From assembly GCF_964195595.1 (NCBI RefSeq), contig NW_027441456.1, forward strand, positions 808,127 to 872,126: 64,000 nt of DNA, written 5' to 3'. The notes beneath the pieces are model-generated. The model ran no database searches, was not told where the DNA came from, and worked only from the letters and a program-made list of their open reading frames with translations. This DNA comes from Calonectris borealis (taxonomy: Eukaryota). Below, piece after piece: positions 24,202 to 62,606 of this stretch. Made by a program: the position numbers and the translations under genes. The stretch's first letter is position 1; each line of letters opens with the position of its first letter.

Positions 24202-24205
24202 TTAC

Positions 24206-26570: not shown

Positions 26571-26714
<144 letters not shown>

Positions 26715-32530: not shown

Positions 32531-32630
32531 CAAAGCTAAAGCCAGCTCCAGGTTTGCTTATATGTACGTTTTGAGCAGGTTTACTAGCATGTGATCTCCA
32601 TCCATGCCCTGCAATGGTTCGGAGCATCTG
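32531..32630 (-). CDS. ACADM: ACADM exon 2: QMLRTIAGHGWRSHASKPAQNVHISKPGAGFSF(G)
   Basis: Acceptor 'tttccttcag', donor 'gtaagtattg'. Aligns with human [29 protein letters not shown]. Confidence 0.85.
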
Positions 32631-39995: not shown

Positions 39996-41572
39996 GTGAT
40001 TTTGTGTTTCTGTGAATCCTCTCCCAGGCACCTTCAGGCACACCTGGCTTGTCTACCTGGTTACAGGTACAAACTGCTGCCTATTCATGCCAGAGTCCCC
40101 TTGCGACATAACCAATCCTTAATCCTGTCACTACACTCACAGAAGAACAGCAAGGCAGGAGGAGGAAGGACCTGGACATGTATTTACAGGCATTTACTGG
40201 GAGTCCAAAGGAGTTAAAAGAAGAGAACATTTCTGAGCAGCTCAGGGAACTCCTGCTTTGCCACTGTGATGTGGTTTGTTGTGGACTGAAAATCAGACCC
40301 CGGAAAGATTTCCTGGGTGCCATCCCTAGGGATTGTCTGGCACTAGGAGAGTCCAGAGATTGGCACCAGCTACAGGACGGGAGGAAAATGTCACAACCTG
40401 AGGAGATCCCCGAGTCAGGCCTTTTTTGCAAAATCAGAAAAAATTCTCCTGGATAAAAGCATAGCTAAACGAAAGAGACAGAAGCACCCTCCTTTGAAGC
40501 TGTCAAATCAGAACTATCAAAATCTTCATCAGTGAGCCCTTGGAACAGGAAAAACACCCGCTCCTATATACAAAGTTCGCAGAAACTTCAAGAAGGAGGG
40601 CCTACGCTCATCTGTCTGTACCCTCAGCACTGTTCTCTACATCCCTACCCTAACTCCCTCTGCCCGCTGCTTCCCTCCCACCCTAACGGAGATCCAGACA
40701 GGACCCCTTCAAGCTGCCGTCATGCCTGAGCAGAACTCAGTCCCCAGCAGCATCTCACACCCTCGTCATGACACTCAGCCAAGACTGCAGCGATGTCCCA
40801 ACCAGACACGCTGGTAACCCCTTTTTGGCATTAAAGGGAATATCCATAAATGCAGCAAACATCTCCTCATTCCCGATTCACTTTTAACTTTTAGCCTATC
40901 TCTGTGAGAACATCATGAGGCCAGAGACCTTGCTCAAGAAATGCGACATTTATTCCATCTGGGCTTTTCCTCTTTCAGGGAGCCAGCTCCTGCTGTGTTC
41001 CTTCATTTAATACAGATCTGATCAACCTTTGGAGAGAAGCAGAGAAGAACAACTGTTAAATCTGCCTGATACTGACCACCGCCTGACACCAGGGACCAAT
41101 AGCACCTCTGCTTCACCCCATCCTGCTCCTAAGTGCCTGCCAGAGCCCCCTCTTGCTGTCATCCCCGTTCCCCAACTGCTGCTCTCCCTGCCCAGGAGCT
41201 GTCACATGGAGGGGAGTGGGGAGGTTAAAAGGCTGAGCTGGTCTGAGCATTTCTGCTCCCCTGAAGACCCTTCACCAAGGCAATTCCTCTTTGTTCAAAG
41301 CATGCAAACCACAATCAGCACACCCTTTATGCAAGTAATTGAGACTCATCTGTGCTTCAGCCAGTGGAAACAAGCAGGGTGCCTATTTTAGTTGATTCTT
41401 CAGCCAAAACGGCACAGTGCAAGACCTTGCGGTCTTAGGAAAACTCCATCAGCAGCCCCACGAATGATCTGGCCTGAACAGACCCTGGCCTTCCTTCAAA
41501 ATAAGGACCTTCATAACAGAACCCTTCTTTCGCTGAGAAGAGACACAACCTACCCACACTTGCAGCGCAAAG

Positions 41573-42300
41573 ATCATAGAATCACAGAATATCAGGTTGG
41601 AAAGGACCTCAAAGATCATCTGGTCCAACCTTTCTTGGCAAAAGCATGGTCTAGACAAGATGGCCCAGCACCTTGTCCAGCTGAATCTTAAAAGTGTCCA
41701 ATGTTGGGGAATCCACCACCTCCCTGGGGAGATTATTCCAATGGCTGATTGTTCTCATTGTGAAAAATTTTCCTCTTGTGTCCAATCGGAATCTCCCCAG
41801 GAGTAACTTGTACCCATTATCCCTCCTCTTTTCCATATGACTCCTTGTATAAAAGGAGTCTCCATCTTTTTTGTAGCCACCCTTTAAATACTGGAACTCG
41901 GTGATAAGGTCTCCCCTAAGCCTTCTTTTCTCAGGACTGAACAAACCCAGCTCTCAGCCTTTCCTCATATGGCAGGCTTCCCAGTCCTTTGATCATCTTT
42001 GTGGCTCTCCAGCCTGTTCACATCTTTTTTGCGTAGCAGGGACCGAAACTGAACACACTATTCTAGGTGTGGCCTGACAAGTACGAGCAGAGTGGGATAA
42101 TGACTTCTTTATCTCCGCTGGTGATGCCCTTGTTGATGCAACCCAGCATCCTGTTGGCTTTCTTTGCCACAGCAGCACAACTGTTCACTCATATTGAGCT
42201 TGTTGTCCACCAGGACCCCCAGGTCCCTTTCCACAGAGCTGCTCCCCAGCCGGGTAGATCCCAGCCTGTGCTGCACTCCACCCCACAAGGTACACCTGGA
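41573..42300 (-). mobile_element. CR1 fragment (3' ~0.7 kb)
   Basis: Minus-strand ORF 41651..41944 '...RFRLDTRGKFFTMRTISHWNNLPREVVDSPTLDTFKIQLDKVLGHLV'. 3' end 'atcatagaatcacagaatatcaggttggaaaggacc'. Confidence 0.85.
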
Positions 42301-42530
42301 AGCCACCCCAAGGGTGTAGGACCCAGGGCTGGGGAAAGAGGTGCCTGGAGGGGCACCCCTTTCACAAACTCCTCTTGCTCCCTGGGATGAGCAGGGACCC
42401 AGCGCTGCAGGCTCATCTTGATGGCAGCCTCTCCCCATCCCTGCAGGCAGCAGCTGCCCAGCCCCAGCCCCATTGCACGCTGGCGGTGGGGCAACCACGG
42501 AAATGCCCTGAGGAGCTCCGGGTCCCTCAC

Positions 42531-42701
42531 CGGATGCTCTCCAGCTGCCAGGTAGAATTCTTCAGCCCCTTGCAGAGCAGCCGCACCCCAGGATCTCCCA
42601 GGTCCTTAGTACTGATGTCCAGCTGCTGCAGGCTCTGGTTGGTGCCGAGTGCGTCGGCCAGGTCCCCGCAGCTGGCACTGGTGATCTGGCAGCACTGCAG
42701 T
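42531..42701 (-). CDS. NLR LRR exon g: LQCCQITSASCGDLADALGTNQSLQQLDISTKDLGDPGVRLLCKGLKNSTWQLESIR
   Basis: Acceptor 'cctgcag', donor 'gtgaggg'. 171 bp. Confidence 0.8.
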
Positions 42702-42939
42702 CTGCAGGGAAGATGCCCCAGAGAGGAGCTGGGGGTCGTCAGCCCCTGTGCGGGATGCAGCCACCCAGCAGCCCCTCCCCAGCCAACACCCTGCCCACAC
42801 CCGGGACACACCCACCCCTCAGCCAATGAGGGGACAGCAAGGGAGACACTGCCTCCTCCCAGCCCTGCCAACGGCCTCCCCACAGCCAATCCCCTCCCAG
42901 AAGGGACCAAACGGGTCTTCTCAGAGGCGCAAAGGAGAA

Positions 42940-43060
42940 GGACGAGAGCAAATGAGGGAGGGAGGGAGGGAGGAAGGAAGGAAGGAAAAAAGCAAGGAAA
43001 AGAGGAAGACAGGAAAAAAGGAAGGGAGGAGGGAAGGAAGATCCTAGCGCGGTCCAGGAC
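42940..43060. repeat. Purine-rich (GGAA/GGGA)n microsatellite in an LRR intron
   Basis: 'gagggagggagggagggaggaaggaaggaaggaaaaaagcaaggaaaag...'. Confidence 0.9.
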
Positions 43061-43222
43061 TCTCTATCCGCAGGCTCCTCTTGCTCTCTGGGCAGGCAGG
43101 GAGGGAGCATGGGATGGTCAGGGACCCACACTCTCCCTGTCTTTGCAGGCAGCAGCTGCCCAGCCCCAGTCCCATCAAGTGCTGCCCAGGAGAAATGCCC
43201 TGAGCAGCCCTGGGTCCCTCAC

Positions 43223-43393
43223 CGCAGTTTCTCCAGCCGGCAGGCAGGATGCTTCAGCCCCTCGCACAGCAGCCTCATCCCAGCATCTCCCAGGTTGTTT
43301 CCACCAAGATGCAGCTCCCGCAGGCTCTGGTTGGTGCTGAGCACTGCAGCCAGGTCCCCACAGCAGGCGCTGGTGAGCTTGGACCACCACAAC
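43223..43393 (-). CDS. NLR LRR exon f: [57 protein letters not shown]
   Basis: Acceptor 'cctgcag', donor 'gtgaggg'. 171 bp. Confidence 0.8.
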
Positions 43394-43849
43394 CTGCAGG
43401 CACAGCAAATCAGAAATACAACGGATCTTGTCACAGCTGCGATGACAGATGCACACAGACGCACAGGCAGATGCACACACCTCACCAGGCCATTGCCCGA
43501 AAGCAATGGTCACAATCCCAAATCGCACATCCCTTGGCCAGTGAGGGGCTAGCGCTGGAGACAACGCCTGCTCCCAGCCCAGCCCAAGAATATCCACATA
43601 CATTAGGAAGTGCATATTGGGCACGGTGATGGGGAGAGCTCCCACACCCTTCCTGGGGAACCAGCATGGCTGGGCACCTCTCTGAAGTGCTGTTACACAG
43701 ATGCATGCAGGACAGGGAACAAACAAGAGGAACTGGAGGTCTGCGTGCAGTCGCAGGGCTTTAGTAGCTCACTGGAATCACAGAGTCATACCGGGATAGC
43801 TCAGCAGCTAGTGCTGCAATGAGTGGATACAGGCTTTTTTGGAAGGTCA

Positions 43850-45700
43850 TGCTGGGAAAGCAAGATGGGAGACTTGCCCTTTACATGAGAGAGTAGCAGA
43901 TCATAGCCCTGGACTTCAGGAGCACTGACCCTGGCCTGTTGAGAGGTCTGCAAGGAAGAATCCCATGACAGACTTTCCTCCAGAGAAGAGGGGTCAAGGC
44001 GAGCTGGTTGACAATCAAGGATCACCTCCTCCAAGCTCAACAACCATCCATCAAACATGAAAAGGAAGCATACAGGAGGTGGAAGCACAGGAAAGTGGCT
44101 TGGAAAGAATGTAGAGATGCTGTCCAAGTGTGCAGGGATCAGGTTAGGAAAGCCAAAGCCCAACTGGAGTTGAATCTGGTGAGGGATGTGAAGGGCAACA
44201 GGAAAGGCTTCTACAGGTACACGCGCAGCAGAATGAACAATACAGAAGATGTGGGCCTGCTGCTGAACGGGAGTAGGGACCTGGTCACAAAGGACATGCA
44301 GAAGGCTAAAGTACTGAATGCCTTCTTCACCTCAGTCTTCACTGGTAAGACTGGCCTTCAGCAATTCCAGGTCCCTGAGACCAATGGGAGAGTCCAGGGC
44401 AAGGTGGACTTATCCTTGGTGCAGAGAACCAGCATGGGGAATGTTTAAGCAAACGGGACATAGGTAAGTTCATGGACCTGATGGGATGCACCCACAAGGG
44501 CTGAGGGAGCTGACTGGTGTCACTGCAAGGCCACTTTTGATAATCTCTGAAAGGTCATGACGATCAGGGCAGGTTCCTGAAGTCTGGAAGAACACAAATT
44601 TTGCCCTATTTTCAAGACAGACAAGAAAGAGGATCCAGGGAACTACAGGCTGGTCAGTCACCTCCATCCTAGGAAAGGTGATGGAGCAAATAATCCCGGG
44701 AACCACTTCTGAATACAGGAAGGACACGAAGGTGACTGGGAGTACTCTGCATGGATTTGCAAAGGGCAAATCATGTCTGACCAACCTGATAGCTGTCTTT
44801 GGTAAAATGAGTGGCTTGGTGCATGAGGAGAGAGCCTTGGATGTCATTTATCTCAACTTCAGAAGGGATTTTGACCCTGTCTTCTGCAACACCCACTTAG
44901 ACAAACTGATGACTATTGGCTAGAAAAGCAGACAGTGAGATGGATTTAAAACCGGCTGAATGGCTCGACTCAAGGATTGTGGCACTGAGTCTACCTGGAG
45001 GCCAGTCACCAGTGGTGTACCCCAGAGGTCAACACTGGGGCTAATACTGTTGAACATCTTCATTAGACACCGGGACTGAGTGCACCCTCAGCAAGTTTGC
45101 AGATGATACAAAAGTAGAGGAGAGGCTGACAGACCAGGTGAGCATGCAACCATTCAGAGGGATCTGGACAGGCTGGAGAAATGGGCTGACAGGAACCTCA
45201 TGAAGTCCCACAAGGGGAAGTGCAAAGTCTTTCATATTGGGATGAGTAACTCCATACACCAGTAGAGGCTTACTGGCTGGAAAGCAGCTTGGCAGAAAAG
45301 GACCTGCGGGTCCTGGTGGACACCAAGTTGACTATGAGCCAGCAATGTGTCCTTGCCGCAACAAAGGCTGAGGGTATCCCGGGCTGCATTAGGAAGAGTG
45401 TTGCCAGCAGGTGGAGGGAGGTGATCCTTCCCCTCTACTCAGCACTGGAGTGAGGCTCCACCTGGAGTGCTGTGCCCAGTTCTGGGCTCCCCAGTACAAG
45501 GGAGACATGGCCGTACTGGAGAGAGACCAACAAAAGGCCAACGAAGGATGATGAAGGGACTGGAGCACCTCACATACGAGGAAAGGCTGAGAAGGCTGGC
45601 ACTGTTTAGCCTGGAGAAGAGAAGGCTCAGGCTCATCAGGCTCTCTCAGGACCAGAAGGAGCCTGGAGAGCAGATTTGGTCAGGGACTCTGGGAAGTAAA
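43850..45700 (+). mobile_element. CR1 LINE fragment (ORF2 middle/RT region, 3' end missing) within the NLR gene intron between LRR exons e and f
   Basis: Plus-strand ORFs 44008..44448, 44678..44923 (TGSTLHGFAKGKSCLTNLIAVFGKMSGLVHEERALDVIYLNF...) and 45467..45703 (...[25 protein letters not shown]) are CR1 ORF2-like. Confidence 0.8.
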
Positions 45701-47148
45701 TGAAGAGCCCCTTGGGAAGACAGTGCAGGGTGACCACCGCTTGGCATGTGGAGATGGAAGAGGGGAATTGTGGCAGAGAGGGCTGGCACTGTGCACCAGC
45801 GGGTCACTCCACAGCCACATTCACTTTCAGCAGCTCACACAGCCAAGTTCTGCGGCACCAGGAGGAGAAACCCACACCAGCTCCGCCTGGCATCCCGGCA
45901 CCCAGCAGCAGCCCCTGGCAAGCCAGCTGCAGTGATATGGCAGTGAGGCTTCTTGGTGCTAAGCATGGCCAAGGAATGGCTGCCAAGTGATGCGCTCCTG
46001 TCTGCGTGAGTGTCTCGCAGAGAATTGCACTGTCTTTCTGCACGTGTGCCCCCAGCCTTGGCTCCCAGGTACAGCTGCACTGATGGGGTCCGTGCTGCCC
46101 GCAGCCGAGCCTATGGGGAACAGAGATGGGAAGATGGACCTCCTGGTTCAGAGAACCCTTTCTTCTGGGTTGGGTTTTGAAACTTCCTTGGGCAAAGGGA
46201 TCCCAAGAGAGTGTCCTCATTCAGTCCCCTCAGTGGGGACCGTGACAGAGAAGCATGGCTCAGAGTGCGCAGTCCAGCAAGAAGCAATGCTTGGAAACAC
46301 TGAGACGTGTGTTTGGAGATGGCTAACTGTAGCCATGCCCGGGTAGCCAGGGGTCACACAGATCAGCTGACAGAGGACTGTGGCAGTAACGGAAGGAAAT
46401 GGCAGGGGCACTTTCTCTTTGAGCGTTTCCATGAGTCTTTTCACTCCTGTCAGTGGCATGTTTCTGAGATACACCTCTGGATTGGTCCAGTCGTTGTGCC
46501 CCGTTTCACCCTGCGGAGCAGCCTCAGAGGGTGAGAACTGGGTTCCTTTGCGATGAGCTGGCCCAAGAAGTTGTGCTCCGGGAGCACAGCTAATGTGCTC
46601 CAGCTGTTTGTAGGCTTTCGGTTCATAGCACAAGACCAAAGGTAAGCCAAAAGGAAAGCAACCCAAAATGTCCCAAGTGTGAACATCAGGCCCTCTACAT
46701 CAGCAGTTTTGTTCCATGTACCCAATGTCCTGGCTCTTCACTGCTGGCAAATTTGGACATGGCCTTTCAGCAGACCCATTTCCTCAATAATTCCTGCTGG
46801 TTCTTATCCCCAACCATCCTTCCCACTGCTTTGGGCCCATCATGGTGGAGACAAGGAATGGGAATTTCTGGCCATTTTGTTTTGTCCAGTCATCTCAGTG
46901 TGTATGCTAGTGGCCACACTGCTGTAAGGGGGGAAGTAGGGGTGGATGCTGCTGATTAAAAAACTCAAGTGCCATGGGCTATGCCCCACACAGCCTTGAT
47001 ATCCACATGCAGCTTTCAGAGATGACACAAGGCCTGTACTTGAGCCCTGAAATTTGGGATGGCAGCGGGGGGTCAAGAAGCCTGTGGGAAAAAGGCCTGA
47101 TGGGAGAGGGAGTGTTAACAGCACACGAAAATCCTTAGGGAGCCTCAC

Positions 47149-47319
47149 CGCAGTTTCTCCAGCCGGCAGGAGGGATGCTTTAGGCCCTCGCACAGCAGGC
47201 GCACCCCCGCGTCTCCAACGTCATTATCACCCAGGTCCAGCTCCCGCAGACTCGGGCTGGTGCTGAGCAGAGTGGCCAGGTCCCCGCAGCCGGTGCTGGT
47301 GATTTGGCAGTGCTGCAGC
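47149..47319 (-). CDS. NLR LRR exon e: [57 protein letters not shown]
   Basis: Acceptor 'cctgcag', donor 'gtgaggc'. 171 bp. Confidence 0.8.
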
Positions 47320-48096
47320 CTGCAGGGGAGGCACACGAAGAGGAGCTGTGAGGTTGTCACAGCCACCAAGAGACAGACGCACTCACCCACCCACCAGCCT
47401 TCCCAGTTTAATCCCACTAGTCCCCGACCCGGAGCTTCCCCAGTCACTGGGCACTTCCCAAGGCTACAGACAACAAACGGGAATTTCTGGGCACTTTGTT
47501 TTGTTCACAAAGTCATCTCAGCATGCACGCTAGTCATCCCACCACCATAGTGGTAATTGTGCGGCTGTGTTCCCGTGGCTTGGCAGAGTGCTCTAGAGCC
47601 ACAGGAGATGCCCCACGTGGCTCAAACATCCAGGCAGAGCTCGCAGAGACAACACAGGGCCTGCACAAGAGCCCCAACATTCGGCATGGCAGCCAGGGTG
47701 GTGATGTGAGTAAAAGCAAGGACTGGGAGGGAGCTGAGTGGCGCAGCCCAGGATGACTTGGGCCTGGCAGAAGAGGGACTTCCCACAAGGATGTGTCCTC
47801 TGCCCTCCTCCGGTGCCCACTCACGTGGGACTGAACACCCTGGACTCAGCAGACGCCGGGGCTGGGGAAACAGGTGCCTGGAGGTGCACCCCTTTCACGC
47901 ACTCCTCGTGCTCTCCAGGCAGGCAGGCAGGGAGCACAGGATGAGCAGGGACCCAGCGCTGCAGGCTCACCTCGACGGCAGCCTCTTCCCATCCCTGCAG
48001 GCAGCAGCTGCCCAGCCCCAGTCCCAGCCCAGACCCCATCAAGGGCTGCCCACAAGGCAGCCAGGGAAATGCCCCAAGGGGCCCTGGATCCTTCAC

Positions 48097-48267
48097 CCCA
48101 AGATCTCCAGCCGGCAGGTGGGTTGCTTCAGGCCCTCGAACAGCAGCTGCACCCCAGCGTCTCCAAAATCATTATCACCCAGGTCCAGCTCCCGCAAACT
48201 CAGGCTGATGCCGAGCGCAGTGGCCAGGTCCCCGCAGCCAGTGCTGGTCAGCTGGCAATATCGCAAC
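48097..48267 (-). CDS. NLR LRR exon d: [57 protein letters not shown]
   Basis: Acceptor 'cctgcag', donor 'gtgaagg'. 171 bp. Confidence 0.8.
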
Positions 48268-48589
48268 CTGCAGGGGAGACACACCAAAAGGAGCCACAAG
48301 ACCATCACAGCCACCAGGACAGATGTAACCACCCAGCAGCCTCTCAACAGGCCTGTGCCCACATGCCACGGCCAGAAACCCTGCCCACACTCATGGGAGC
48401 CAGTGCTTTACCAAGAGCTTGGTGCTGGAGTGACCGCTTGCTCCAAGCCTGGCTCTCGGCCTCCTCTGAGCCCATTTCTTCCGAGAAGGGAACAAATGGC
48501 TCTTCTCAGTGGTGCGTAATGGAAAGATAAGAGGTAACAGGCACGACTTCCAACAGAGGAAACTAATTAGACTTTAGATCTCTCCATCC

Positions 48590-48790
48590 CTGTTCCCCCA
48601 TGAGTGTGGTCACAGTGGAACAGGACCCCACAGAGGCTGTGGGATCCTCATCCTTTAAAACATTCCTAACCCAGTTGGACAAGACCCTGAACAACAGAAC
48701 CTACGGCAGCCCAGCTTTGAACACGAAGAAGTGCTGGACGACTTCTGGAGGTCCCCTCCTACATAAACTACTTTATGATTCTGGATCTGG
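48590..48790 (+). mobile_element. CR1-like 3'-terminal fragment (second copy at ~53935-54115) embedded in a duplicated intronic segment
   Basis: '...ggacaagaccctgaacaacagaacctacggcagcccagctttgaac...tggaggtcccctcctacataaactactttatgattctggatc' resembles a CR1-subfamily 3' end. Both copies are nearly identical. Confidence 0.5.
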
Positions 48791-49479
48791 GCAAGACCCT
48801 GCTCATTAACTGCCCTTCTGCAAATGGCTGGAGCTGTGGAGACTCTGGAAAACAGGCCTATTCCTAGAATCCTTCAGACCCTGCCTGCACTCAGGACATA
48901 CATGTAGGGATGCACTCCTTCAGCCGAAAATGCAGCAACACTAACTCCCCCTTTGCCAACACAATCCTTGCTGCTGGGCTTGCTCATTCACGGCATTCAT
49001 CCACTCCTCTCTCCAGGACATCCTTCTGCTGCCCAGCTGCTCTCTTCCCGCTTGGAGGGGAGAGCAGGCAAGATCACTTTAATTGTCCAGCCCACCTGCC
49101 TGTGCTTCAGGATCCATTTCCTCCTGCCTTGCCTTCACATATCCTTATGCATCCCTTTAAGCTTCCATGGAATCACTCTCCTGCCCTAGGCCAACAGTGG
49201 GAAGCACCAGCTTAGCACATTTCCTTCCACCTGTTCAATGATCTTGAAAAAGTGAATACTGCTACTCTCCTCCCTTCACAAGTTCTGCCCATTTGTAAAA
49301 GCCCCTCTCTGCTGAGAAGCCTTAGGGCTTCCTCACTTTCTCCTCTGGGAGAAGCCTTTGCCCCTCAATATCAGGTGATGGGCACCAGGGAATCCTGCAA
49401 GTCATCTCAGCTGGCACCGGCCACCTCCATGTGGGATCGGCCAAGCCCCTCCAAGTAGTGCATGGCAGATGTTTTTCTT

Positions 49480-50345
49480 CTCCTAGAGGATCTCATTGAG
49501 CAACTTCTAAACCAGCTTCTGTGTAGAGATGCCTTTTTCCTCAGTGCAAGCAGACATCAAGAACTGTATGAAGTTTAGCAAAGACAAATGCAAGGTCCTG
49601 TACCTGGGACAACATAACCAAAGAGCCCAGTACAGGCAAGCATTGGTGTGACTGGGGAGCAGCCTTGCTGAAAGGGACCTGGGGTCCTGGTAGACAATAA
49701 GCTGAATGTGAGTCAGCAGTACACTGCTGCAGCAATGAAGGCAAATCAGATCCCGGCCTGCAACCGCAGGGGCATGGCTAGGAGAGAGAGAGATGTGATC
49801 ATCCCACTCTCCTTCATGCTTATCAGGCCACACCTGGAGTACTGTGTCCAGTTCTGGTCCCTACAATTCAAGAAAGACGTGGACAGACTGGAGAGAGTCC
49901 AAAGGAGTGCCACAGAGATGATCATGAGATCATGAGAACCTGCCCTATGAGGAAAGACTGAAGGAGTTAGGTCTCTTCTGCCTGGAGAAGAGAAAGCTCA
50001 GGGAGGAACTCATGACAGTATTCCAGAACTTAAAGGGTAGCTACAAAGAGGATGGAGGCGCTCTCTTCACAAGGAGCCACATGGAGAAGACAAGGGGCAA
50101 TGGGTACAAGTTGCACTGGGAGAGGTTTCATCTCAACATAAGAAAGAAATATTTCACAGTAAGAACAATCATTCACTGGAACAACCTTCCCAGGTAGAGT
50201 CCCCATCGCTGGAGGTTTTCAAGATGTGATTGGACAAGTTGCTAGATAATCTCCTCTAGGTTCCCTTTCCCACAAACAGTTGGACCAGATGATCTTTCGA
50301 GGTCCCTTCCAGTCTGGGCTATTCTATGATTCTATGATCATCCAT
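49480..50345 (+). mobile_element. CR1 LINE fragment with intact 3' end
   Basis: ORFs 49708..49935 (...PHLEYCVQFWSLQFKKDVDRLERVQRSATEMI) and 50012..50197 (...YKLHWERFHLNIRKKYFTVRTIIHWNNLPR). 3' end 'ccagatgatctttcgaggtcccttccagtctgggctattctatgattctatgatc'. Confidence 0.9.
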
Positions 50346-51160
50346 TCTGATTCATGCAAGAGATCATTTGAGAAGAGGAGGTGTCCATCGTAGTATTTGA
50401 GGCTGTGTTCTCCTTGGTAGTTTCGTGCTACTGCTCCCATTTCAGTCACAAAGATGCCAGGCTGAATCCCATTGCCCAAAGAGAGGGGTCCAGGGCTGAC
50501 TGAGAGATGGGGTTGACTGGATCGTGATCTGGGGCTTGCAAACATGACACAGAGCCAACAAACCTCAATGCCAGGAAGGCTGTATGAGAAAAGCAACAGC
50601 TTAGAAAGGTAGCTGAGTGACCCAACTCCTGTCAACTCCTGACCATGGTCACAGCGTGCTAACACAGACGTCGTGCACTGGAGGAATTCAGGGACTGACT
50701 CTCCAGCTCAGTTCCACTGGGTGTGTCCCAGAGGAGATCCCTGTGTTTCAGTTGGCCACCCTGAGGCCTGTCCTTTGCAGGAGGAGAGACAGGGTCGCCC
50801 TGGGAGGCGTGCAGCTCTCTGGGGTGCTGCAGAGTCCTACGCTGGAGCAATGAGTTGGTCATGGCAGAAGATCGCCTTTCCGCAAGGATGTGTCCTCTGC
50901 CCTCCCCCGGTGCCCGCTCACCTGGGACTGAACACCCCGGACACAGCAGACACCAGGGCTGGGGAAACAGGTGCCTGGAGGGGCACCCCTCTACACAATC
51001 TTGCTCTCCGGGCAGGCAGGGAGGGAGCACGGGATGAGCAGGGACCCAGCACTGCAGGCTCACTTCCATGGCAGCCTCTCCCCATCCCTGCAGGCAGCAG
51101 CTGCCCAGCTCCATCAAGTGTTGCCCGGGGAAATGCCCCAAGGAGCCCCAGGTCCCTCAC

Positions 51161-51331
51161 CCCACATTCTCCAGCCGGCAGGTGGGATGCTTCAGCCCCT
51201 CGCACAGCAGCCGCACTCCAGCGTCTCCCAGGTCATTAGAACCAACATCCAGCTCCCGCAGGCTCTGGTTGGTGCTGAGCGCAGTGGCCAGGTCCCCACA
51301 GCCGGCACTGGTGAGCCGGCACCACCACAGC
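51161..51331 (-). CDS. NLR LRR exon c: [57 protein letters not shown]
   Basis: Acceptor 'ccacag', donor 'gtgaggg'. 171 bp. Confidence 0.8.
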
Positions 51332-52802
51332 CTGTGGAGAGACACACCAAAGAGCCAGGGGTCATGGCAGCCACTGGGACCAACGCACCCGACCCTGCCC
51401 TCCCCACCCACCCATCCCAGCCGCTCCCTCCAGTCCTACCCACTAGGTGCTGGGCCAGTCGGGGTGGTGGTGATGGAGTGAGGCCCAATCCCAGCTGGCC
51501 ACGGGGCTGCCCTGGCCCGACGCCAGGCAATGCTCCCCATGGTCGCTGGGCCTCTGGCTGCCCCCAGCCCCACGCTCGCCATGCGCCAGGTCCCACAGAA
51601 ACCCCACTGGCAGAGGGACAGCAGGGGGAGAACAGAGGAGGAGACGGATGGAGGTCAGAGGAGAGCCCTGCCCCATGGACTGCTGTGCTGGGGCACAGAC
51701 CTGCAGCCAAATGATGACGTGCTATGTGACAGTGTGATGAAAGACTGAAGGGCTCAGCAGCCCTGGGAGAGTGCTCAGAGCTCTCAGGCATGGGATCAGG
51801 AGGGCAAGAGGGGAAGTGTGGCAGAAGTTAATGGACAGAAGGGACCAGGAGGACACTACAGACACCCAAAAGGCCACAGCAGGATGAGTGATAGACCAGA
51901 TCTTCTCCAAGACCCTGCAGCTTAACAGCCCCAACCTGCAGCTGGAGTACTGTACTGGAGGAGGGGCAGGAGTCTGCATCCATCAGGGTGGAAAGTGGAG
52001 AATCCTAGGATGGTGAAGGCTGGAAGCTTTTAACTTCTGACGCTATGAGGAAGGCTCCTGCTTCACCCCAAGATTTGCAATGCCAGAACAGATTCAGTGT
52101 TGTAGTAGCTGGCAAGGGGCTGGGACCTCCCTTCAATGAAGTACTCAAGGCAGCTAAACTTCAGCCGTGCAACAGAAACAGGAAGAGTGGTGAGTATATA
52201 GCAGCAGATGACTCGCGGCTGTGGGGGATGGATGCTGCCACTGGTCGACCCGACACCGTGGTCTTGGTTGCTGACAAGGGGCTGTTAGTGCACAGCGTGC
52301 TAACACAGACGTCGTGCACTGGAGGAATTCAGGGACTGACTCTCCAGCTCAGTTCCACTGGGTGTGTCCCAGAGGAGATCCCTGTGTTTCAGTTGGCCAC
52401 CCTGAGGCCTGTCCTTTGCAGGAGGAGAGACACGCTCCCCCTGGGAGGCGTGCAGCTCTCTGGGGTGCTGCAGAGTCCTACGCTGGAGCAATGAGTTGAT
52501 CATGGCAGAAGATCGCCTTTCCGCAAGGATGTTGTCCTCTGCCCTCCCCCGGTGCCCGCTCATGTGGGACTGAACACCCCGGACACAGCAGACACCAGGG
52601 CTGGGGAAACAGGTGCCTGGAGGGGCACCCCTCTACACAATCTTGCTCTCCGGGCAGGCAGGGAGGGAGCACGGGATGAGCAGGGACCCAGCACTGCAGG
52701 CTCACTTCCATGGCAGCCTCTCCCCATCCCTGCAGGCAGCAGCTGCCCAGCTCCATCAAGTGTTGCCCGGGGAAATGCCCCAAGGAGCCCCAGGTCCCTC
52801 AC

Positions 52803-52973
52803 CGCAGTTTCTCCAGCCGGCAGGTGGGATGCTTCAGCCCCTCGCACAGCAGCCGCACTCCAGCGTCTCCCAGCTTGTTATCACCGATGTCGAGGTCCCT
52901 CAGTCTCTGGTTGGTGCTGAGCACTGCACCCAGGTCCTCACAGCCAGCGCTGGTTAATTCACACGCCCCCAGC
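52803..52973 (-). CDS. NLR LRR exon b: ...[54 protein letters not shown]
   Basis: Acceptor 'cctgcag', donor 'gtgaggg'. 171 bp, same phase. Confidence 0.8.
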
Positions 52974-54729
52974 CTGCAGGGAATGCACATGGGGAAGACT
53001 CTCAGCATTGCCAGCCCAGCCTGCCACCTTTCCTCCCCTGGCAGCGAGGGCCAAGAAGGGGCCCCCAGGCAGGGAGCCCTGCAGGCAGGGTGCTGGGAAG
53101 AGCTGGGCGAGCGGCCATCAGCTCAGCCCAGGCAGGGTTGCCCCCCTGCCTAGAGCCAGATGCAACACCCATCTCCTCTGACCCTCCAGCTCCCACAGAG
53201 AGACTCTTGCTGGCACAGCAGCCAGACTGTGCTGGCTTCTGGCCCCTGACAGCTGGCTGTGGGCCACCTCATGAGCCCTCATCCATTCGAACCCTCCCCT
53301 CCTCATCTGAGACTTTCCAGTGCTTCCTGCAGCTGGTCAGGAACAGGCTAACACACGGCAAGAAACCCTACCCCTTGGCAGGGCCCTTCCTAGCACAAGC
53401 CCTCCTCCAAACTTTGCTCTGAGTACTGAAATGCCACCCCAATCTACAGCTAACTGAGCCCCACGTATTTAAAGAGTGGTTTTGTTCCTCCCACCTGACA
53501 GGGAGAGTGTTCCCGTCAGAAAGTGGGAGGCTATGGGGAAGGGAAAAAAACCCGCCACGCAGCTCAATGGTGAAATCAAGAGGAAGGAGCCTTCACAATT
53601 CAACAGGAAAGCAGAATGTTTTGATAAATGCATGAAAATCAAAAGAAATAATGGTCGCCCCAATGCAAGAATGCACCATTGGGAACTGGTGCAAGCCCAG
53701 CAGAGGAGCACAAAAATGGCTAGGGGGCTGCGGCAACATGAGATATGAGGAGAGGCCGAGAGCACAGGGTTTGTTGAATCAAGGGAAGAGAAGTCCAAGG
53801 GTGCAATCTTATTGCTGTTACCAGATACTTCCTGGGACAGTGAGTCCTAGGTGCACAGAGGTGCACAGGAAACTAGACTTCAGATCTCTCTGTTCCCTGT
53901 TCCCCGTCCCCCCACGATCAGTGTGGTCAAACAGGGGAACAGGACCCCAGAGAGGCTGTGGGATCCTCATCCTTTAAAACATTCCTAACCCAGTTGGACA
54001 AGACCCTGAACAACAGAACCTACGGCAGCCCAGCTTTGAACATGAAGAAGTGCTGGACGACTTCTGGAGGTCCCCTCCTACATAAACTACTTTATGATTC
54101 TGGATCTGGGCAAGACCCTGCTCATTAACTGCCCTTCTGCAAATGGCTGGAGCTGTGGAGAGTCTGGAAAACAGGCCTATTCCTAGAATCCTTCAGACCC
54201 TGCCTGCACTCAGGACATACATGTAGGGATGCACTCCTTCAGCCGAAAATGCAGCAACACTAACTCCCCCTTTGCCAACACAATCCCTGCTGCTGGGCTT
54301 GCTCATTCATGGCATTCATCCACTCCTCTCTCCAGGACATCCTTCTGCTGCCCAGCTGCTCTCTTCCCACTTGGAGGGGAGAGCAGGCAAGATCACTTTA
54401 ATTGCCCAGCCCACCTGCCTGTGCTTCAGGATCCATTTCCTCCCACATTAGCTCTATGCGACCACCCCAGCTTCAGCCATGTTGCTTGCATGTCCCAGTA
54501 CAACGGTGGGGACCTCAAGCTTAGCAGCACTTTCACCCACCCCACGATCTTGAAAGAGCTGTCTCCCTTTTCAGGAATTCATCCCCTCTCTCAGCTTGCC
54601 TCTCTGATGAGTGCCATTTGGGAAACACCACTTCCATCTCCACGTACCAGTTGGCAGCAGCAGCTGCCCAGCCCCAGCCCCATCGAGTGCTGCCCAGGGA
54701 AACACCCCGAGGAGCTCCAGGTCTCTCAC

Positions 54730-54900
54730 CGCAGTCTCTCCAGCAGGCAGGCTGGATGCTTCAGCCCCTCGCACAGCAGCCGCACCCCAGCGTCTCCCAC
54801 CTGCCTGTCTTGCACGTCCAGCTCCCGCAGACTCTGGCTGGTGCTGAGTGCGGCGGCCAGGTCCCTGCAGCCGCGGCTGGTGAGCTGGCACTGCCACAGG
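54730..54900 (-). CDS. NLR LRR exon a (171 bp): (L)[56 protein letters not shown]
   Basis: Acceptor 'ctctctgcag', donor 'ggtgagagac'. Consensus of NLRP LRR exons (C..L...C..L..LS.N.SL.ELDLS.N.LGD.G...LC..L..P.C.L..L.L). Confidence 0.8.
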
Positions 54901-57900
54901 CTGCAGAGAGATGCACCAAAGAGGGGCTGGGAGTTATCAGAGCCACCGGGACAGATGCAGCCCCCCACCACGCTCTCAGCAGCCTCAGTCTTGCCTATGG
55001 GCTCCGGGGAGGAGGGTAGCTCCAAGGAGCCACGGGGATCAGCAGAACCTGATCCTGGCCCGTGTGTGGCCCCAGCGCGCTATGCCTTGTTTGGGGTAGG
55101 AGTATCCCTCTCCGCCTTCCCCACCCTGGGGAGGGGTTCCTCGGGCTCTGGTTTTCCCCACCCCAAGCTGATGTTCCCAGGGGACCTGGGCCAGGTTGGA
55201 CAACCCCTCTCCCTCAACGCCCCGTAGCAGGGCCTTCAGATACCTTCCTGAGGCTCAAGGGCTGTGAACACAAGTTCTATCAGGTGGAGAAGGACTCGAC
55301 TCCTCCTCTCCAGTCTCTGGTCACATGCAGGAAGCACAAGGGCATTACACACAGGGATTTGGGATTATCTCTCCAGCAGGATTCAGGTGGGCAGAATGAT
55401 CTGCCTGCTTGAGAGAAAGGCTGGCATTTTGGTTGGTTTGTTTCTAAGAAACAGAACAGTTTTCTCACCTGAGTGTCTTCAATTTGCTCCTTGGATTCCC
55501 TACAGCTTGATGGAGCAGGCACAGAGATGACGACTGTGACTGCTCTGTCTGGCATGGCTGCCTGGAGAAGTGAAGAGGAGATGCTCTGCATGAGAGGTGG
55601 CAAGCTGGATTCGTTACTAGTTCACAAGCATCAAAACAGCATGTCAGGGAGCATGACCTCCCACTCAAAACAGGATGGTGTGTATTCCCAGTTCATCGCA
55701 AATCATTTGAAAACCAGATGAGGCTCACACCATGCAATGCTGGGTCAGACATTCAAGACATTGAGAGTAATCACCAATGCTGTGTGTTGTACACAGCTAC
55801 CTTAGCGTGACCGTTCACTCAGCTTTTGGCGTAACATGTGGCTCACACCAAGACCCAATGTGTGCTGGGAGCAGCACCATTAGGTCAAAGCGAGAGCAGC
55901 ATGTTCGCAGAACACGCTGGACATGCATTGTGATGGAGAAGCTAGGTTAGGTAACTATTTCTCTCACAGACACGCGAGTTGGAGAATTTGCAAGATAGGA
56001 GAACATGAGAGGTATTTGAGAAGGTGTAGTGAATCCACAAATTAATGAATTAGAGAATTCACGTGATAGACTAATCTGTACAAAGGGGATTGAGCCTTTG
56101 CTTGATTTATTTTTAACCAGATGAGCTCACGAAATAAATTTTAATTTATAAAGTGTAAATTGTCCTGTAAATTTGAAAGATCCAAATGAACCATGACACT
56201 TACCCATGCAAAGACTTTTGCTATCCACATACAAAGACTATGCTTGATCTGGTCAGGTTTGTAGGAGGGCTTCCCAGGGAAGGCAAGCTGGTGGCTTTCA
56301 TTCTCATCAACAAACCCTTGAGGAGCAGGGCACTGGGCTGCCTGGACACTGGACAGAGCTCTCCAGAAATGTCTCAGCCTCTAAACAGATCCAAAGGTTC
56401 CTCTGGAATTCCAGGAACAGAGATGCTTGCGCGAACTGAAACTGCCCCATGGCAAGAGCGAGCAACCCAGGTCCCTATGCAGGGGATGGGAATGGGAGCA
56501 CATCCACAGCCTTCCCTTGCGCTGCTAATCGTTTCCTTCATAAGATGCAGTTCCTTTCTGAGCATTAATTACCACTGTTGGGAAAAGGGCAACTGCGCTC
56601 CCCACTGAGCACACAGCTCCCACAGGGAAAAACCACACGGACCGAGTCCAGCCGGGTAATGACAGCTGGTGCCATCAGCAGTAGCCCGGAGCCCTGGTAT
56701 GAGGGAAAGAAGCTACCTCAGGGAGTTGGCTATGGGATACAGCCCTTGAGGGGCTGTGTCTGAACAGGTCTGAGAACACTCGGAGCCACAGCTCACCCAG
56801 AGTCCAGGTGGACATGCTGTTTGGGGCTACCCGTTCACCAGCCCCCACGCCTGTTCACTGCAATTTGGACCAGGACAATAAACCTGCTTGCGTCTGACTT
56901 GCTTGTGCTCTCAAGGCATTCCTCACCACTCTTTCCCTGCTGTTGGGGAGAGAACTCTGGGAGCTCTCTTCCCGACACTGATGGGGAAACAGGTGCAGGG
57001 TAGTGCCCAATACTACCATCCCTTCCCAAACTCCTTGCCGGTCCCACTGCTGACCATGGAAGTGCAGCTACAGTGCCGTGGAAGCGGCAGCTGCTGCTGC
57101 TTTTCCAGTTTAACAAATACCTTCCAAGGGAAGAAGATTGTGCTTTGACAGTTGCCCGATGCCACAAGAAAGCCTCGCCACAATGAGAAGGTTGCACCCC
57201 GTAGGGGAGAGGGGATACAGACAAAAACTGCGCTTTTACAGGGGTTATGGTTTTTCCGGTACAGAACTCCTGATAAGCCCTCTGCAGCATGAGCCATCTC
57301 TTGCCCTGTCTCAGGGGTCCAGGCTCATTTTGTGCTGTGCTGAGCATCTCCAGCTCACTCAGGGCACTTGCCCTGGCCATATTGCTGAGAGGCGAACAGA
57401 TCCCTCCTAGCTGGGTACCAGAGCCCTCTGCCTGATCAAGCACAGCACTCTCGTGAGCAGAGTCTCACAAGAGACTCTGCCAGCCTGCAGATAAGAGTCA
57501 AACAGGTCAAGGGAGAAGCAACAGCCCATGGCCATTTAGCGCACGTGCCCCGGGCAAGTGCAGGATTGCAGCTTAACCCCTTCCAAACTCACACAGGATG
57601 GCCCAAGCTTTTTGCTCTCTGCTTCTTTGCTAGGACTCTCTCTGAATGCAAGTCAAACCTTCCAGCCTTTCAGACCAAGGACTACAGGGAAAGGGGTAGT
57701 GAAAAAAAACAGGTTTGCATTTTCAGGAAAAGCAAATGAAAATGCCTTTAAAAATACCTTTTGCAGTGTATCCCCCTACTAGGGCAACGCAGTGGAGATA
57801 AGCGCTTGTATTTCCCGCAGAGAAACACCACTCTGGCTTGGTACTTTCCTGGACCTAGGAGAAGAGGCTTTGTAGACACAGTGGATAGCTAACATAGCTC

Positions 57901-58181
57901 TGCAGCTCCGCAGCTCCTTTATGGAACTGCCCACAGTGTCAACTCCATCAGCATGGTCTCCACAAGAGCCTTAGTCAATCAGTAATGAAATGAGTAACCA
58001 TGCCGAGAGTGTAGGGGAAAGAGTTTTTTAGTAGGAAAGCAAGAAGAGTCCCTTCACTGTAATAGCATTAGTTTGCTGGGAAAGACTTTCTACTATTTTT
58101 AGTTCGTAGAAAGGGAGAGAAGATCAACTTACTGGTTCAGGGAACTTTGTCACTGCGGTTGTCAGACAATACAATACTTAC

Positions 58182-59898
58182 AGACATGATCGCTCTGGGG
58201 GTCCTGGAATGACCTTGTTTTCATGGTCTTCCCATGTAAGGAAGCACCATTCAAGATGAAGGGAGTCCAGTCCTTTCCAGGGTTTGACACAGAATGAGAG
58301 AACCCTTTGATCAAATTGGGTCAGGCTGATGTCTCTCAGAACGATCCCCGTAAAATGCTCCAATGCATTGCTCACAAACGTTTCTTCATGACTCTCAAAC
58401 AAACAGTGAAATATATTCAAGTCAAAAACCACCTTATCAGAACTTGAAGCTACTCCTTGGCTTATCTGAGTCCACCTCAGCAAGTCTTCCTCAATTTGAG
58501 GTGAAGTTTCACATCCAGTTATTTCTTTCAGCTTCTTCTTTAGTTCATTGTTTAACAGGCCAAACAGGAATCGCACCACTAATATAAAACGTGTTTTACA
58601 TTCATTGTAGTTTTCAAGCACTACATTTATTCTTTTCTCAGGAGTCTCCGAGTGTCCCCTTGTGTCTTCACTGTCCCCCAGTGCATAGAACAATGCTGCA
58701 AAAAACTCTTGAAAGCTCAGATGAACGAAGCTGTAGACATTCACGCACTCCCTACCTTTTCTTAGAACACTCTCACTCAGAAAAAGGGAGCATAAAACTT
58801 GGTGATTTAAGCCATGTTCCTTGATCTCCTTTTCCTCAAACAGGATCTCCTGCCTCCAGATTCCATCAGCAGCCAGGCAGCAAAGTCTGCCCAGGAACTT
58901 CTTCAGATCCTGCTTCAGATCTTCTTTCCCACACTTGAGTAATGTGGAAAGGTAGGACACATACAGCTCTGTGATTGTTGTAGAAGGCTGTGAAAGATCA
59001 TTCCCTTCATCAAGTTCTTGTTCAAGGGCAGTGCAGACGGTCCAACATATGATGGGTACAAGGCACATGGTAAAAAGAGTGTCATTTCTTTTGACAAAGC
59101 TAATGGCTTTCCTTGCTTTGTCTTCATCCATGAAGAACTTGCGGAAATATTCCTCCCTCTCAGCTTCTGAAAAACCCAGTATCTCTGCAAAACACTCTGT
59201 CTTTAAACACTGCCCCAGACTTTGAAGAGCCGTTGGTCTTGTGGTGATGAGTAAGGAGGACTCCGAAAGGAGAGTCTTCTCCAATAAACTGCTCAGAATA
59301 ATTTCTACGGGCTTCTTTTCCTCAGCACTTGAGCATAATTTACATTTTGGTTGATCCAAGGAAAACCTCAGTTCATCAAAGCCATCAATGATGAACAGAA
59401 GCTTCTGGGGACTAGCCAGGATCTCGTCAAGTGGTGCCCATCGATCAGGACAGCAATCTGACATCAAGTCACCCAGACTCAGCAAGTCCTCTTGCTGAGA
59501 AAGGTTGATCTCTCTACAGCTTATGTAGAAGGCATAGTCAAACTGTGCGTAAAGAGCTCCTTTTGCCCAGTCTAACATGATCTTTCTTGATGTCATTGTC
59601 TTTCCAATACCTGCAGCTCCCACCAGCACAATGATCTGTGGTATTTGCCCTTTTTTATCAGGCTGAAAAAGAGTTTCCACAGTGATGGTACGTTTAGCAC
59701 CTTCTCCTCTGACCTCCTCGTGTCTCTGCCTGAGACGCAGGACCTCATGTTCTTGTTCAGTTGTGTTGTGAGTCTTTGTAACCATCATCAGCTTTGCATA
59801 TCTGCTGCTTAGAGTCACATTCTCACCCAGGCGAGTGTTCACCTCTTTAAATGTACAGAACTCTCTTGCTACATAGTCTCTGTACTTCTGCCTGTAAT
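58182..59898 (-). CDS. NLRP3-like NACHT exon (1717 bp, phase 1 in, phase 2 out). Contains Walker A 'GAAGIGKT', Walker B 'LLFIIDGFDEL', then NACHT-associated/winged-helix region.
   Basis: ORF 58178..59926 (582 aa). Acceptor 'ggtttag' at 59899-59905, donor 'gtaagtattg' at 58181. Close similarity to human NLRP3 (DYRKKYRKYV..., GAAGIGKTILARKMMLDWA, ILFLMDGFDEL, LLITTRPVAL, EILGFSEAKRKEYF, LFTMCFIPLVCWIVCT, SFIHMTFQEFFAA...). Confidence 0.9.
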
Positions 59899-60823
59899 CT
59901 AAACCAATGAGAAACATAAGCACCACCCCCTAATAAAGGCAAACTTCTCATTAGCCCCTCATCATTAAAATTATTCCCACAACACATTCCCAGTACACTG
60001 CAGTTGTTTTACATGTCTGTTTTAGAAGACTTCCAAAGACCTTTACAACGGCTTATGCTGAGCAACCATCTGAGCAGGCCTCTCTACCTTTTATTTAGGG
60101 AAGGTGGGGGGAACCAGCTCCTCTTCACACAGCTCCATTAAGTACCACCAAGTAGGGCAGAAGGAACCCAAGGGGGGAAGAACACCTTCATGGGAAAGAC
60201 TGGTGAGCATTTACTTGGAAAACAGTTGCTAAGCATACTCCTCTTTCTGTAAAGCAGAAGAGGACTTCCACCTTAATTTCTCAAATGGAAGACACATGGT
60301 TCCTCTGGCCCAAATCAGACTTGGAGGGCAGAGGTCCAGTCAACCTCCACTGCAATAAGCAGGTGATACTGTCGGTTGATTAGAGATCACCCATTGTATC
60401 ACCTCTCTTCCTTCAAACTCTGCCAGAAAAGGAGAATCTGAATTGTCCCTTGTATTCCCTAGGTGCGTAGATGGCTCTGCACCACTATCTCCTGGCTGAG
60501 ATAGCTGCACGTAGCATAGGCACTTCTGCTGAAATGGCACATACCGTCAGCTAATACATACCGTTCCAAGACTGGGAGCTGAAACTGCAAAATGAACATG
60601 AGTATTAGCACAGTGGTGTGGCAAAGTCCCACAGACAATGTTCAGAGGCAGTGGATCCCTCTGGTGCCTGCCTAAAATCCCAGAGGATAAAGCAGATTTC
60701 TGCTACTGATATTGCCACACAAGCACTGTGAACACTCCCTGCCCTCTGCAAATCAACCTGCCTTTACATTGGGAAGAAACCCCTCTCCTCCCAGGGAACC
60801 CCAGGTCCCACATGGGGACATTA

Positions 60824-61275
60824 GAATCATAGAATTGTTAAGGTTGGAAAAGACCTCTAAGATCATCGAGTCCAACCGTCAACCCAACACCACCACGCCC
60901 ACTACACCATGTCCCTAAGCGCCTCATCTACACATCTTTTAAATACTTCCAGGGATGGTGACTCCACCACGTCCCTGGGCAGCCTGTTCCAAGGCCTGAC
61001 CACTCTTTCAGTAAAGAAATATCTCCTGATGTCCAATCTAAACCTCCCTTGGCACAACTTGAGGCCATTTCCTCTCATCCTATCGCTGGTTACTTGGGAG
61101 AAGAGACCAACACCCACCTCGCTACAACCTCCTTTCAGGTAGTTGTAGAGCACGATGAGGTCTCCCCTCAGCCTCCTCTTCTCCAGGCTAAACAACCCCA
61201 GTTCCCTCAGCCGCTCCCCATCAGACTTGTGCTCCAGACCCTTCACCAGCTTCGTTGCCCTTCTTCTTTCCCAGA
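60824..61275 (-). mobile_element. CR1 3' fragment, upstream of the NLR NACHT exon
   Basis: Minus-strand ORF 60902..61312 '...[47 protein letters not shown]'. 3' end 'tagaatcatagaattgttaaggttggaaaagacc'. Near-identical to the CR1 at 28571. Confidence 0.9.
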
Positions 61276-61399
61276 GCAGAAGAAATTGCCTGACCTGTGG
61301 GCCACAACCCACCCCACCTGATCAAGAGGGCAGGGCACGTAGCACCCCAGGAAAAAGGGAGGAGTCATGGCAGCAGTCCCCGAAACCGGCATGTAGGGC

Positions 61400-62470: not shown

Positions 62471-62606
62471 CTGTTCTAGGGTTTTCCTACAAGAAGACAA
62501 GACCGTCTGAGAGGCACCTGCCCGCCCCCTTCGCCTGCTGCTGGCCCACCACGTACCAGGGCAGGAGTGACCTCAGAAGCACTTACCCATCCACGGCCTT
62601 AGAGCC

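Follow-up and report, generated by a model that had tools for sequence, protein, structure and literature searches.

A PYD-less NLRP3/NLRP12-like gene upstream of ACADM in Cory's shearwater, probably a neoavian-specific duplicate

Is the NLRP3-type gene that lies beside ACADM in a seabird genome a displaced NLRP3, a paralogue or a copy in decay? We examined this question in a 64,000-nucleotide stretch of the Cory's shearwater (Calonectris borealis) genome (contig NW_027441456.1, positions 808,127 to 872,126; hereafter the window), in which the minus strand encodes a NACHT domain followed by an array of leucine-rich repeats (LRRs). A preliminary description of this DNA, made from its letters alone, had presented an intact NLRP3-like inflammasome-sensor gene that could be either a lineage-specific paralogue or a translocated orthologue of NLRP3. 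From gene structure, homology searches and trees we conclude, with a probability of roughly 0.7, that the gene stems from a dispersed duplication, specific to Neoaves, within the bird NLRP3/NLRP12-like family (the resulting copies are here termed A1), and that it lacks a pyrin domain (PYD).

Joining 11 minus-strand exons with canonical ag/gt borders at every junction yields a single open reading frame (ORF) of 3,123 nucleotides encoding 1,040 amino acids, laid out as FISNA-NACHT-WH-HD2 followed by a 15-repeat LRR domain of the ribonuclease-inhibitor (RI) type, with no pyrin domain. This model was built from the window plus homology alone and was later corroborated by annotated potoo and Calonectris proteins; its LRR exons were located by tblastn with full-length homologues, after which their borders were inspected. 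The coding exons, in order of transcription, are as follows.

61586 to 61649, minus strand: coding part of exon 1 now used, from a new in-frame ATG at 61649; encodes MRCWQGSAGGTAAQLGQEEEE and the first base of the next codon
60562 to 60584, minus strand: optional 23-nt mini-exon (..VSAPSLGT), taken from the annotated Calonectris model; preceded by ttttgcag and followed by gtatgt
58182 to 59898, minus strand: FISNA-NACHT-WH-HD2 exon, 1,717 bp, open; tttag acceptor after a polypyrimidine tract, CT/gtaagt donor; acceptor of the annotated isoform at 59929
55469 to 55561, minus strand: transition LRR exon, 93 bp (..QPCQTEQSQSSSLCLLHQAVGNPRSKLKTL), placed from homology, exon borders and the annotated protein
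54730 to 54900, minus strand: LRR exon 1, 171 bp, two RI-type repeats
52803 to 52973, minus strand: LRR exon 2, 171 bp
51161 to 51331, minus strand: LRR exon 3, 171 bp
48097 to 48267, minus strand: LRR exon 4, 171 bp
47149 to 47319, minus strand: LRR exon 5, 171 bp
43223 to 43393, minus strand: LRR exon 6, 171 bp
42531 to 42701, minus strand: LRR exon 7, 171 bp
40975 to 41026, minus strand: terminal coding exon, encoding LIRSVLNEGTQQELAP and the stop

All seven LRR exons are flanked by ag on one side and gtga on the other, and each intron cuts its codon after the second base (phase 2). The terminal exon, which follows a good acceptor, has its homologue in the last exon of other bird NLRPs (L(K/N)K.GF.EE...LNIGYI, then stop), but its stop comes 13 codons sooner; about 20 nt 3′ of it is an AATAAA, at roughly 40949-40954. 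The preliminary description had read correctly the open minus-strand ORF at 58178 to 59926 (582 amino acids), the motifs GAAGIGKT, LLFIIDGFDEL, LLITTRP, FSEAEREEYF and HLSFQEFFAA within it, and the seven 171-bp phase-2 LRR exons at the positions listed here, and did not contain the transition exon, the terminal exon, the optional mini-exon or the degenerate PYD exon described below.

The gene is already in public annotation, as "NLRP12-like" for both Calonectris borealis and Nyctibius grandis, and the feature is therefore not new. A profile search recovered the Calonectris protein (P0400, "NACHT, LRR and PYD domains-containing protein 12-like", 1,058 amino acids), which is 100% identical to our model at all 1,040 aligned residues, has the same exon-1 N-terminus and gives no PYD hit in Pfam (PF02758). 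It departs from the model only by 18 extra residues, encoded by the mini-exon and the stretch added by the upstream NACHT-exon acceptor at 59929; both splice forms between exon 1 and the NACHT exon stay in frame, and both are PYD-less. An exhaustive search of representative sequences recovered the potoo protein (P0241, XP_068280868.1, Nyctibius grandis "NLRP12-like isoform X2", 1,035 amino acids), which is 80.3% identical over 1,029 amino acids from end to end, matches every LRR exon one-to-one, shares the terminal exon and has a short non-PYD N-terminus beginning MAAQLGQKEEE/DYRQKYRD. Both proteins had been missed by a word-indexed protein search.

Domain and structure searches place the product among NLRP3-type NACHT-LRR proteins, as first described. 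Pfam recognizes FISNA (31.9 bits, cutoff 28.1), NACHT (161), NOD2_WH (62) and NLRC4_HD2 (91) in the NACHT-exon ORF, and FISNA, NACHT, WH, HD2 and LRR_6 (121 bits) in the full-length model, whose LRR part also gives strong ribonuclease-inhibitor matches. The best match of the NACHT exon among solved structures is human NLRP3 at 461 bits, followed by NLRP6 (332) and NLRP1 (290), and human NLRP3 is again the best such match of the full-length protein, at 734 bits. Walker A (GAAGIGKT), Walker B (LLFIIDGFDEL), sensor-1 (LLITTRP) and the winged-helix histidine (HLSFQEFF) all align to the human protein.

We placed the gene within its family with two neighbour-joining trees. The first, of 120 sauropsid homologues, contains four avian NLRP3-like clades (A to D); the second, broader tree, with 100 bootstraps, includes mole and squirrel NLRP3, mole-rat NLRP12, and platypus, marsupial, squamate, turtle, alligator and newt sequences. 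Bootstrap support is 100% for A1 (the window gene, the potoo gene and Podargus P0001), for A2 (PYD-bearing genes of waders, storks, gulls and penguins and a second Podargus gene), for A1 + A2, for A + B (B being a pan-avian clade with tinamou, ostrich, swan and condor), for C + D, and for mammalian NLRP3 + NLRP12 + platypus, and is 89% for all sauropsid copies together. A1 is sister to A2, A1 and A2 together are sister to the canonical bird NLRP3 clade B, and the sauropsid clade is sister to mammalian NLRP3 and NLRP12, whose representatives score almost equally against the gene (443 versus 434 bits). Judged from these scores and from the trees, the gene is in the NLRP3/12 lineage, yet within birds it is a duplicate of a duplicate, which makes it a paralogue of NLRP3 and not its orthologue. 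Its descent within the NLRP3/NLRP12 group is indicated by a FISNA score above cutoff, by human NLRP3 as the top PDB hit and by the neighbour-joining tree; a one-to-one orthologue would branch with mammalian NLRP3 and apart from NLRP12, which is not what the broader neighbour-joining tree shows. This placement agrees with a published caution that NLRP3 and NLRP12 are not separable at this evolutionary distance (PMC11258412) and with the argument that non-eutherian NLRPs are not true NLRP3 orthologues (preprint 10.64898/2026.04.26.720791).

Many non-passerines, among them ostrich, rhea, storks, gulls, cranes and penguins, have three or four distinct NLRP3-like genes from clades A to D, with clades B and D on one 70-95 Mb chromosome; one NLRP3 has been reported in each of four representative birds (PMC11258412, Table 1).

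The genomic surroundings bear on how the A1 copy came to lie where it does. The neighbouring gene is on the same strand.

20101 to 32633, minus strand: ACADM, neighbouring gene, span of the coding exons that were found

The adjacency to ACADM noted in the preliminary description thus holds: about 9.9 kb separate the last LRR exon from the first ACADM coding exon downstream of it, with the NLRP gene directly upstream of ACADM, and the window ACADM shares 98% identity with the main cluster of avian ACADM sequences. The tawny frogmouth A1 gene (P0001) likewise lies directly upstream of ACADM in the same orientation, and collinearity between the frogmouth locus and the window extends from the intron that precedes the NACHT exon across the LRR array and the intergenic DNA and on into ACADM. 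The other frogmouth gene (P0007, A2) belongs to a separate locus, with about 75% DNA identity. One tinamou has instead a choline-transporter gene (in the position of human SLC44A5), a 4.4-kb spacer, ACADM and, downstream, a prenyltransferase gene, with no NLRP sequence between the choline-transporter gene and ACADM. A search with tinamou sequence found no SLC44A5 exons in the window or the NLRP loci, so that the evidence for an insertion between SLC44A5 and ACADM is confined to the tinamou comparison; the 10-kb ACADM flanks of falcon and king penguin end before the position equivalent to the NLRP gene. On the simplest reading, A1 would have arisen by dispersed duplication upstream of ACADM after the palaeognath split and before the divergence of shearwater, potoo and frogmouth. 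This is the lineage-specific paralogue among the two origins first proposed, in keeping with the fully supported A1 grouping and the NLRP-free tinamou locus. The A2 genes are on 14-16 Mb chromosomes of chromosome-level assemblies and not beside ACADM, as judged from scaffold sizes only. Eutherian NLRP3 has ZNF496 and OR2B11 as neighbours (PMC13076529; bioRxiv 10.64898/2026.04.26.720791), and the window gene, upstream of ACADM, does not sit in this ZNF496-NLRP3-OR2B11 arrangement. Our literature search found no paper mentioning NLRP3, ACADM and synteny together.

The absent pyrin domain can be traced to a decayed exon at the 5′ end of the gene.

About 61586 to 61853, minus strand: relic of the ancestral PYD exon, recognized by DNA alignment to the Limosa, Podargus A2 and ostrich PYD exons
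61700 to 62500, no strand: CpG island, GC 0.77-0.86, CpG observed/expected 0.7-1.1, overlapping the PYD relic in its 5′ half; probably holds the promoter and 5′ leader of the gene

A standard tblastn protein search of the window found no PYD exon; the relic surfaced only through DNA alignment to the Limosa PYD exon, which aligns to window 61786-61334, and through a search without composition correction. In a four-way alignment with Limosa, Podargus A2 and ostrich, the ancestral ATG has become GTG, 15 bp are deleted and an in-frame TGA is present, while the splice donor G/GTGAGG has been kept. Translated conceptually, the relic does not match the Pfam PYD (PYRIN) model at E<=1. Counted over sites with the same base in both A2 genes, it has undergone 85 weak-to-strong (W-to-S) versus 7 strong-to-weak (S-to-W) substitutions. 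All lesions are confined to the abandoned part of the exon, and the new ATG (61649) is placed 21 codons ahead of the conserved exon-1 donor; the ancestral PYD exon has decayed into the GC-rich leader of a CpG island, with translation now presumably beginning from this new ATG. The early-stop nucleotides of the terminal exon are shared with frogmouth and the PYD-less architecture with potoo, and these changes are therefore old. The PYD loss of A1 is independent of the one reported in songbirds and falcons. Measured against the definition of the NLRP subfamily, the gene has the NACHT/WH/HD2 domains and the 171-bp phase-2 LRR exons and lacks the pyrin domain. With the PYD exon dead, the reading of the gene as an inflammasome sensor in the canonical sense finds no support, and the description of the copy as intact stands for the NACHT and LRR parts and fails for the PYD, where the start codon is lost, 15 bp are deleted and an in-frame TGA is present.

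In contrast to the PYD relic, the NACHT-LRR part looks constrained in the shearwater. Three-taxon decomposition gives non-synonymous (dN) and synonymous (dS) divergences of 0.030 and 0.090 on the shearwater (window) branch, an omega of 0.33, and of 0.118 and 0.207 on the frogmouth branch; parsimony polarization with two A2 outgroups counts 20 synonymous and 36 non-synonymous changes, a ratio of 0.48 (P=0.008 against neutrality). These omega estimates come from one exon and few taxa and are of moderate strength. A stop would result from 4.4% of possible single-base coding changes, and neutrality would therefore be expected to leave 8-12 new stops on the shearwater branch, where 0 are observed (P ~1e-4 to 1e-6). 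Neither disabling lesions in the coding exons in use nor a neutral substitution pattern, as a pseudogene would have, is found: the 3,123 coding nucleotides and 20 splice sites contain no stop, frameshift or broken splice site, and omega is below 1. We therefore consider it probable that A1 in the shearwater is a functional gene without a PYD.

Several observations weigh against this conclusion. The biochemical role of the protein rests wholly on analogy with NLRP3, the trees are of the neighbour-joining type only, and omega values of 0.33-0.48 amount to moderate constraint only. The start codon, the choice of splice form between exon 1 and the NACHT exon and the polyadenylation site were all inferred; the start ATG is not shared with potoo, whose own ATG position reads ACG in the window, and other bird NLRPs have a C-terminus 13 codons longer. 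The frogmouth orthologue has clearly become a pseudogene: its NACHT exon contains a stop and deletions of 1, 4 and 11 nt, and a large deletion is present as well, so that at least one lineage can do without the gene. P0001 lacks the segment equivalent to window 58320-53572, with loss of the transition exon and the first LRR exon, its PYD region is more degraded than the shearwater relic, and its terminal exon has a 4-nt deletion. The shearwater gene could be a unitary pseudogene in early decay, functionless since the PYD was lost, its open NACHT-LRR frame a leftover that annotation pipelines still call; the dead PYD exon, the truncated C-terminus, the start codon not conserved with potoo, the decayed frogmouth copy, an A1-type fragment (P0275) with a scrambled P-loop region and the failure to find ASC in most birds (PMC11258412) all point this way. 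We consider such decay unlikely, given that the PYD loss and early stop are shared with frogmouth and the architecture with potoo, and hence old, whereas the 3.1-kb ORF and its 20 splice sites are still perfect in the shearwater, potoo has an equivalent ORF, the expected 8-12 stops are missing from the shearwater branch alone and non-synonymous changes are significantly under-represented.

Two further explanations concern the missing PYD and the identity of the gene. A pyrin domain might be supplied by an alternative first exon beyond the window end (past 64000), making the relic an abandoned duplicate of that exon; merely 2.1 kb separates the relic from the window end, and the alligator PYD exon lies 6.2 kb upstream of its NACHT exon. 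Against this, the relic occupies the position homologous to the A2 PYD exon, whose donor it shares and whose flanking intron is homologous; the shearwater and potoo proteins, as annotated, both begin within the relic and are PYD-less; and no PYD match occurs anywhere in the window. We regard an upstream PYD exon as highly improbable. That the gene is the true bird NLRP3 orthologue, moved beside ACADM, is suggested by human NLRP3 as its best solved-structure match and by the many database entries named "NLRP3". This translocated origin, the other one first proposed, has in our estimate only a negligible chance of being correct: canonical bird NLRP3 is the separate pan-avian clade B and has been placed at another conserved locus (PMC11258412), A1 is a nested, second-order duplicate, the sauropsid copies group together outside mammalian NLRP3 + NLRP12, representatives of those two genes score nearly alike, and the tinamou ACADM locus has no NLRP gene. 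A neoavian-specific, PYD-less duplicate is thus the reading we retain.

The gene structure, the loss of the PYD, the paralogy and the constraint on the NACHT-LRR part are shown by the data; what such a PYD-less duplicate might do can be outlined, by inference, from its conserved motifs. Since Walker A/B, sensor-1 and the winged-helix histidine align to human NLRP3, a nucleotide-switched STAND ATPase mechanism is plausible, in which the protein would still bind and hydrolyse ATP and may self-associate through NACHT and LRR surfaces. Lacking a PYD, it would be unable to nucleate PYD filaments; its output could be either PYD- and ASC-independent or that of a modulator or decoy of the PYD-bearing paralogues (A2, B), acting through NACHT or LRR contacts. 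ASC has been reported absent from most birds (PMC11258412; PMC13076529), and the PYD may therefore be dispensable. We tentatively extend this to a larger claim, which we hold at somewhat less than even odds: that in at least two bird orders (Procellariiformes and Nyctibiiformes) A1 has kept functioning for tens of millions of years with no death-fold domain, and represents a second, independent avian PYD loss through GC-biased CpG-island takeover of the first exon. If true, this would offer a natural experiment on how an NLRP3-type sensor signals without PYD and ASC or exerts dominant-negative regulation.

Further features of the locus and its relatives were recorded alongside the gene. Within the LRR array, introns flanking adjacent LRR exons are 98-99% identical in two pairs of segments (50891-51190 and 52533-52832, 1,642 bp apart; 48612-48911 and 53931-54230, 5,319 bp apart), and LRR exons 2 and 3 have identical 3′ halves. 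This pattern suggests recent gene conversion or local duplication in the array, although the exon count matches potoo one-to-one. ORF fragments of CR1-type retroelements (...RLRGDLI..YLKGG...) fill introns and flanks at 41400-46000, 49500-50200, 60800-61300 and 62600-63400. Matches of the P0004 and P0001 C-termini at 44305-44403 and 41467-41550 were considered as exons and rejected as CR1-type ORF stretches, taken into those homologue models as spurious, probably mis-annotated tails. The frogmouth orthologue (Podargus strigoides CM051657.1, L001 10001-17164) is annotated as a 910-residue "NLRP12-like" protein whose annotated N-terminus is a GC-rich repeat.

On the ACADM side, a second CpG island (33500-34600, GC 0.74, CpG observed/expected 0.89) closely precedes ACADM exon 1, whose promoter it presumably is; beyond it, 34.5-38.2 kb is conserved with falcon (76%) and king penguin (86%). 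We considered and rejected a duplicated ACADM locus as the source of the NLRP-ACADM block, as the "ACADM-like" entries of several birds are intron-retention isoforms of one gene: the 85-nt intron at 31505-31589, between exons 31590-31718 and 31430-31504, is retained in the stork (P0125) and king penguin (P0127) entries, which explains their "-like" names with no need of a second ACADM gene. Window 1-16100 consists of a 5.93-kb unit in at least 2.7 tandem copies, 98-100% identical, in an array that runs past the window start; each unit carries a SNORD45 box C/D snoRNA on the minus strand (635-719, 6563-6647, 12490-12574 and 15999-16083). The DNA of this unit is single-copy in king penguin and matches the region downstream of ACADM that holds the prenyltransferase (RABGGTB-like) gene in tinamou, so that part of a host gene with its snoRNA intron has been tandemly amplified in this genome or in this assembly. 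ACADM and/or A1 lie on small scaffolds in otherwise chromosome-level assemblies (Podargus 0.93, Nyctibius 0.64, Calonectris 1.57, Aptenodytes 0.47 and Ciconia 1.76 Mb), whereas the ACADM of tinamou and wagtail lies on a chromosome of about 30 Mb; the ACADM/A1 region may be flanked by repeats that assemble poorly.

The A1 paralogue beside ACADM, its independent PYD loss and the GC-biased CpG-island erosion of its first exon appear undescribed in the searchable literature. These are modest evolutionary details of an ordinary family member, and they leave current understanding unchanged unless function is demonstrated. They bear on the debate over how bird NLRP3-like proteins signal without ASC: many non-passerines have up to four NLRP3-like clades against the one gene per representative species of the literature, and one of these clades, A1, lost its PYD independently of songbird and falcon NLRP3 and keeps a constrained NACHT-LRR part. 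GC-biased erosion of a PYD exon within a CpG island may be how the "novel disordered N-termini" reported for bird NLRP3 arise more generally.

Compared with human NLRP3 (PDB 7pzc, 7vtp), the shearwater gene shares the FISNA-NACHT-WHD-HD2-LRR layout, Walker A/B, LLITTRP, the winged-helix histidine and LRR exons that are likewise 171 bp and phase 2. It differs in that the basic linker KDYRKKYRKYVRSRF is reduced to LDYRQKYRDYVAREF, with 4 basic residues lost in the aligned stretch, the acidic loop is not conserved, a transition repeat and about two more LRR exons are present, the PYD is missing and the genomic neighbourhood is another. The eutherian membrane-binding linker exon (hydrophobic helix, Cys130, polybasic KKKK/RKKYRK) has no counterpart in the shearwater gene model, whose N-terminus is acidic (..QEEEE). 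Mammalian NLRP12, from which annotation pipelines take the name "NLRP12-like", is about as similar to the shearwater gene as NLRP3 is; unlike the shearwater gene it has a PYD, and it groups with mammalian NLRP3 and not with the sauropsid genes.

Among birds, the annotated Calonectris protein is the same gene with its alternative exon-1 splicing, and the potoo gene (XP_068280868.1/XP_068280867.1, P0241/P0390) is its orthologue at 80% identity, alike in PYD-less N-terminus, transition exon, seven LRR exons and short terminal exon and different in its start ATG and in an end 6 residues later. The A2 paralogues of Limosa, Ciconia, Numenius, Rissa, Spheniscus and Podargus (P0007) have the same exon plan and are 61-69% identical to the shearwater gene; the intron upstream of their NACHT exon is homologous and their PYD exon is homologous to the shearwater relic, but unlike A1 they retain an intact PYD (Pfam PF02758). 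Canonical bird NLRP3 (clade B), pan-avian and sister to clade A, is about 48-50% identical in the NACHT region. The bird NLRP3 locus has been reported near CEND1/LRRC55, and songbirds and falcons have a form in which the PYD is replaced by a disordered region (PMC11258412); that loss parallels the PYD loss of A1 as a separate event.

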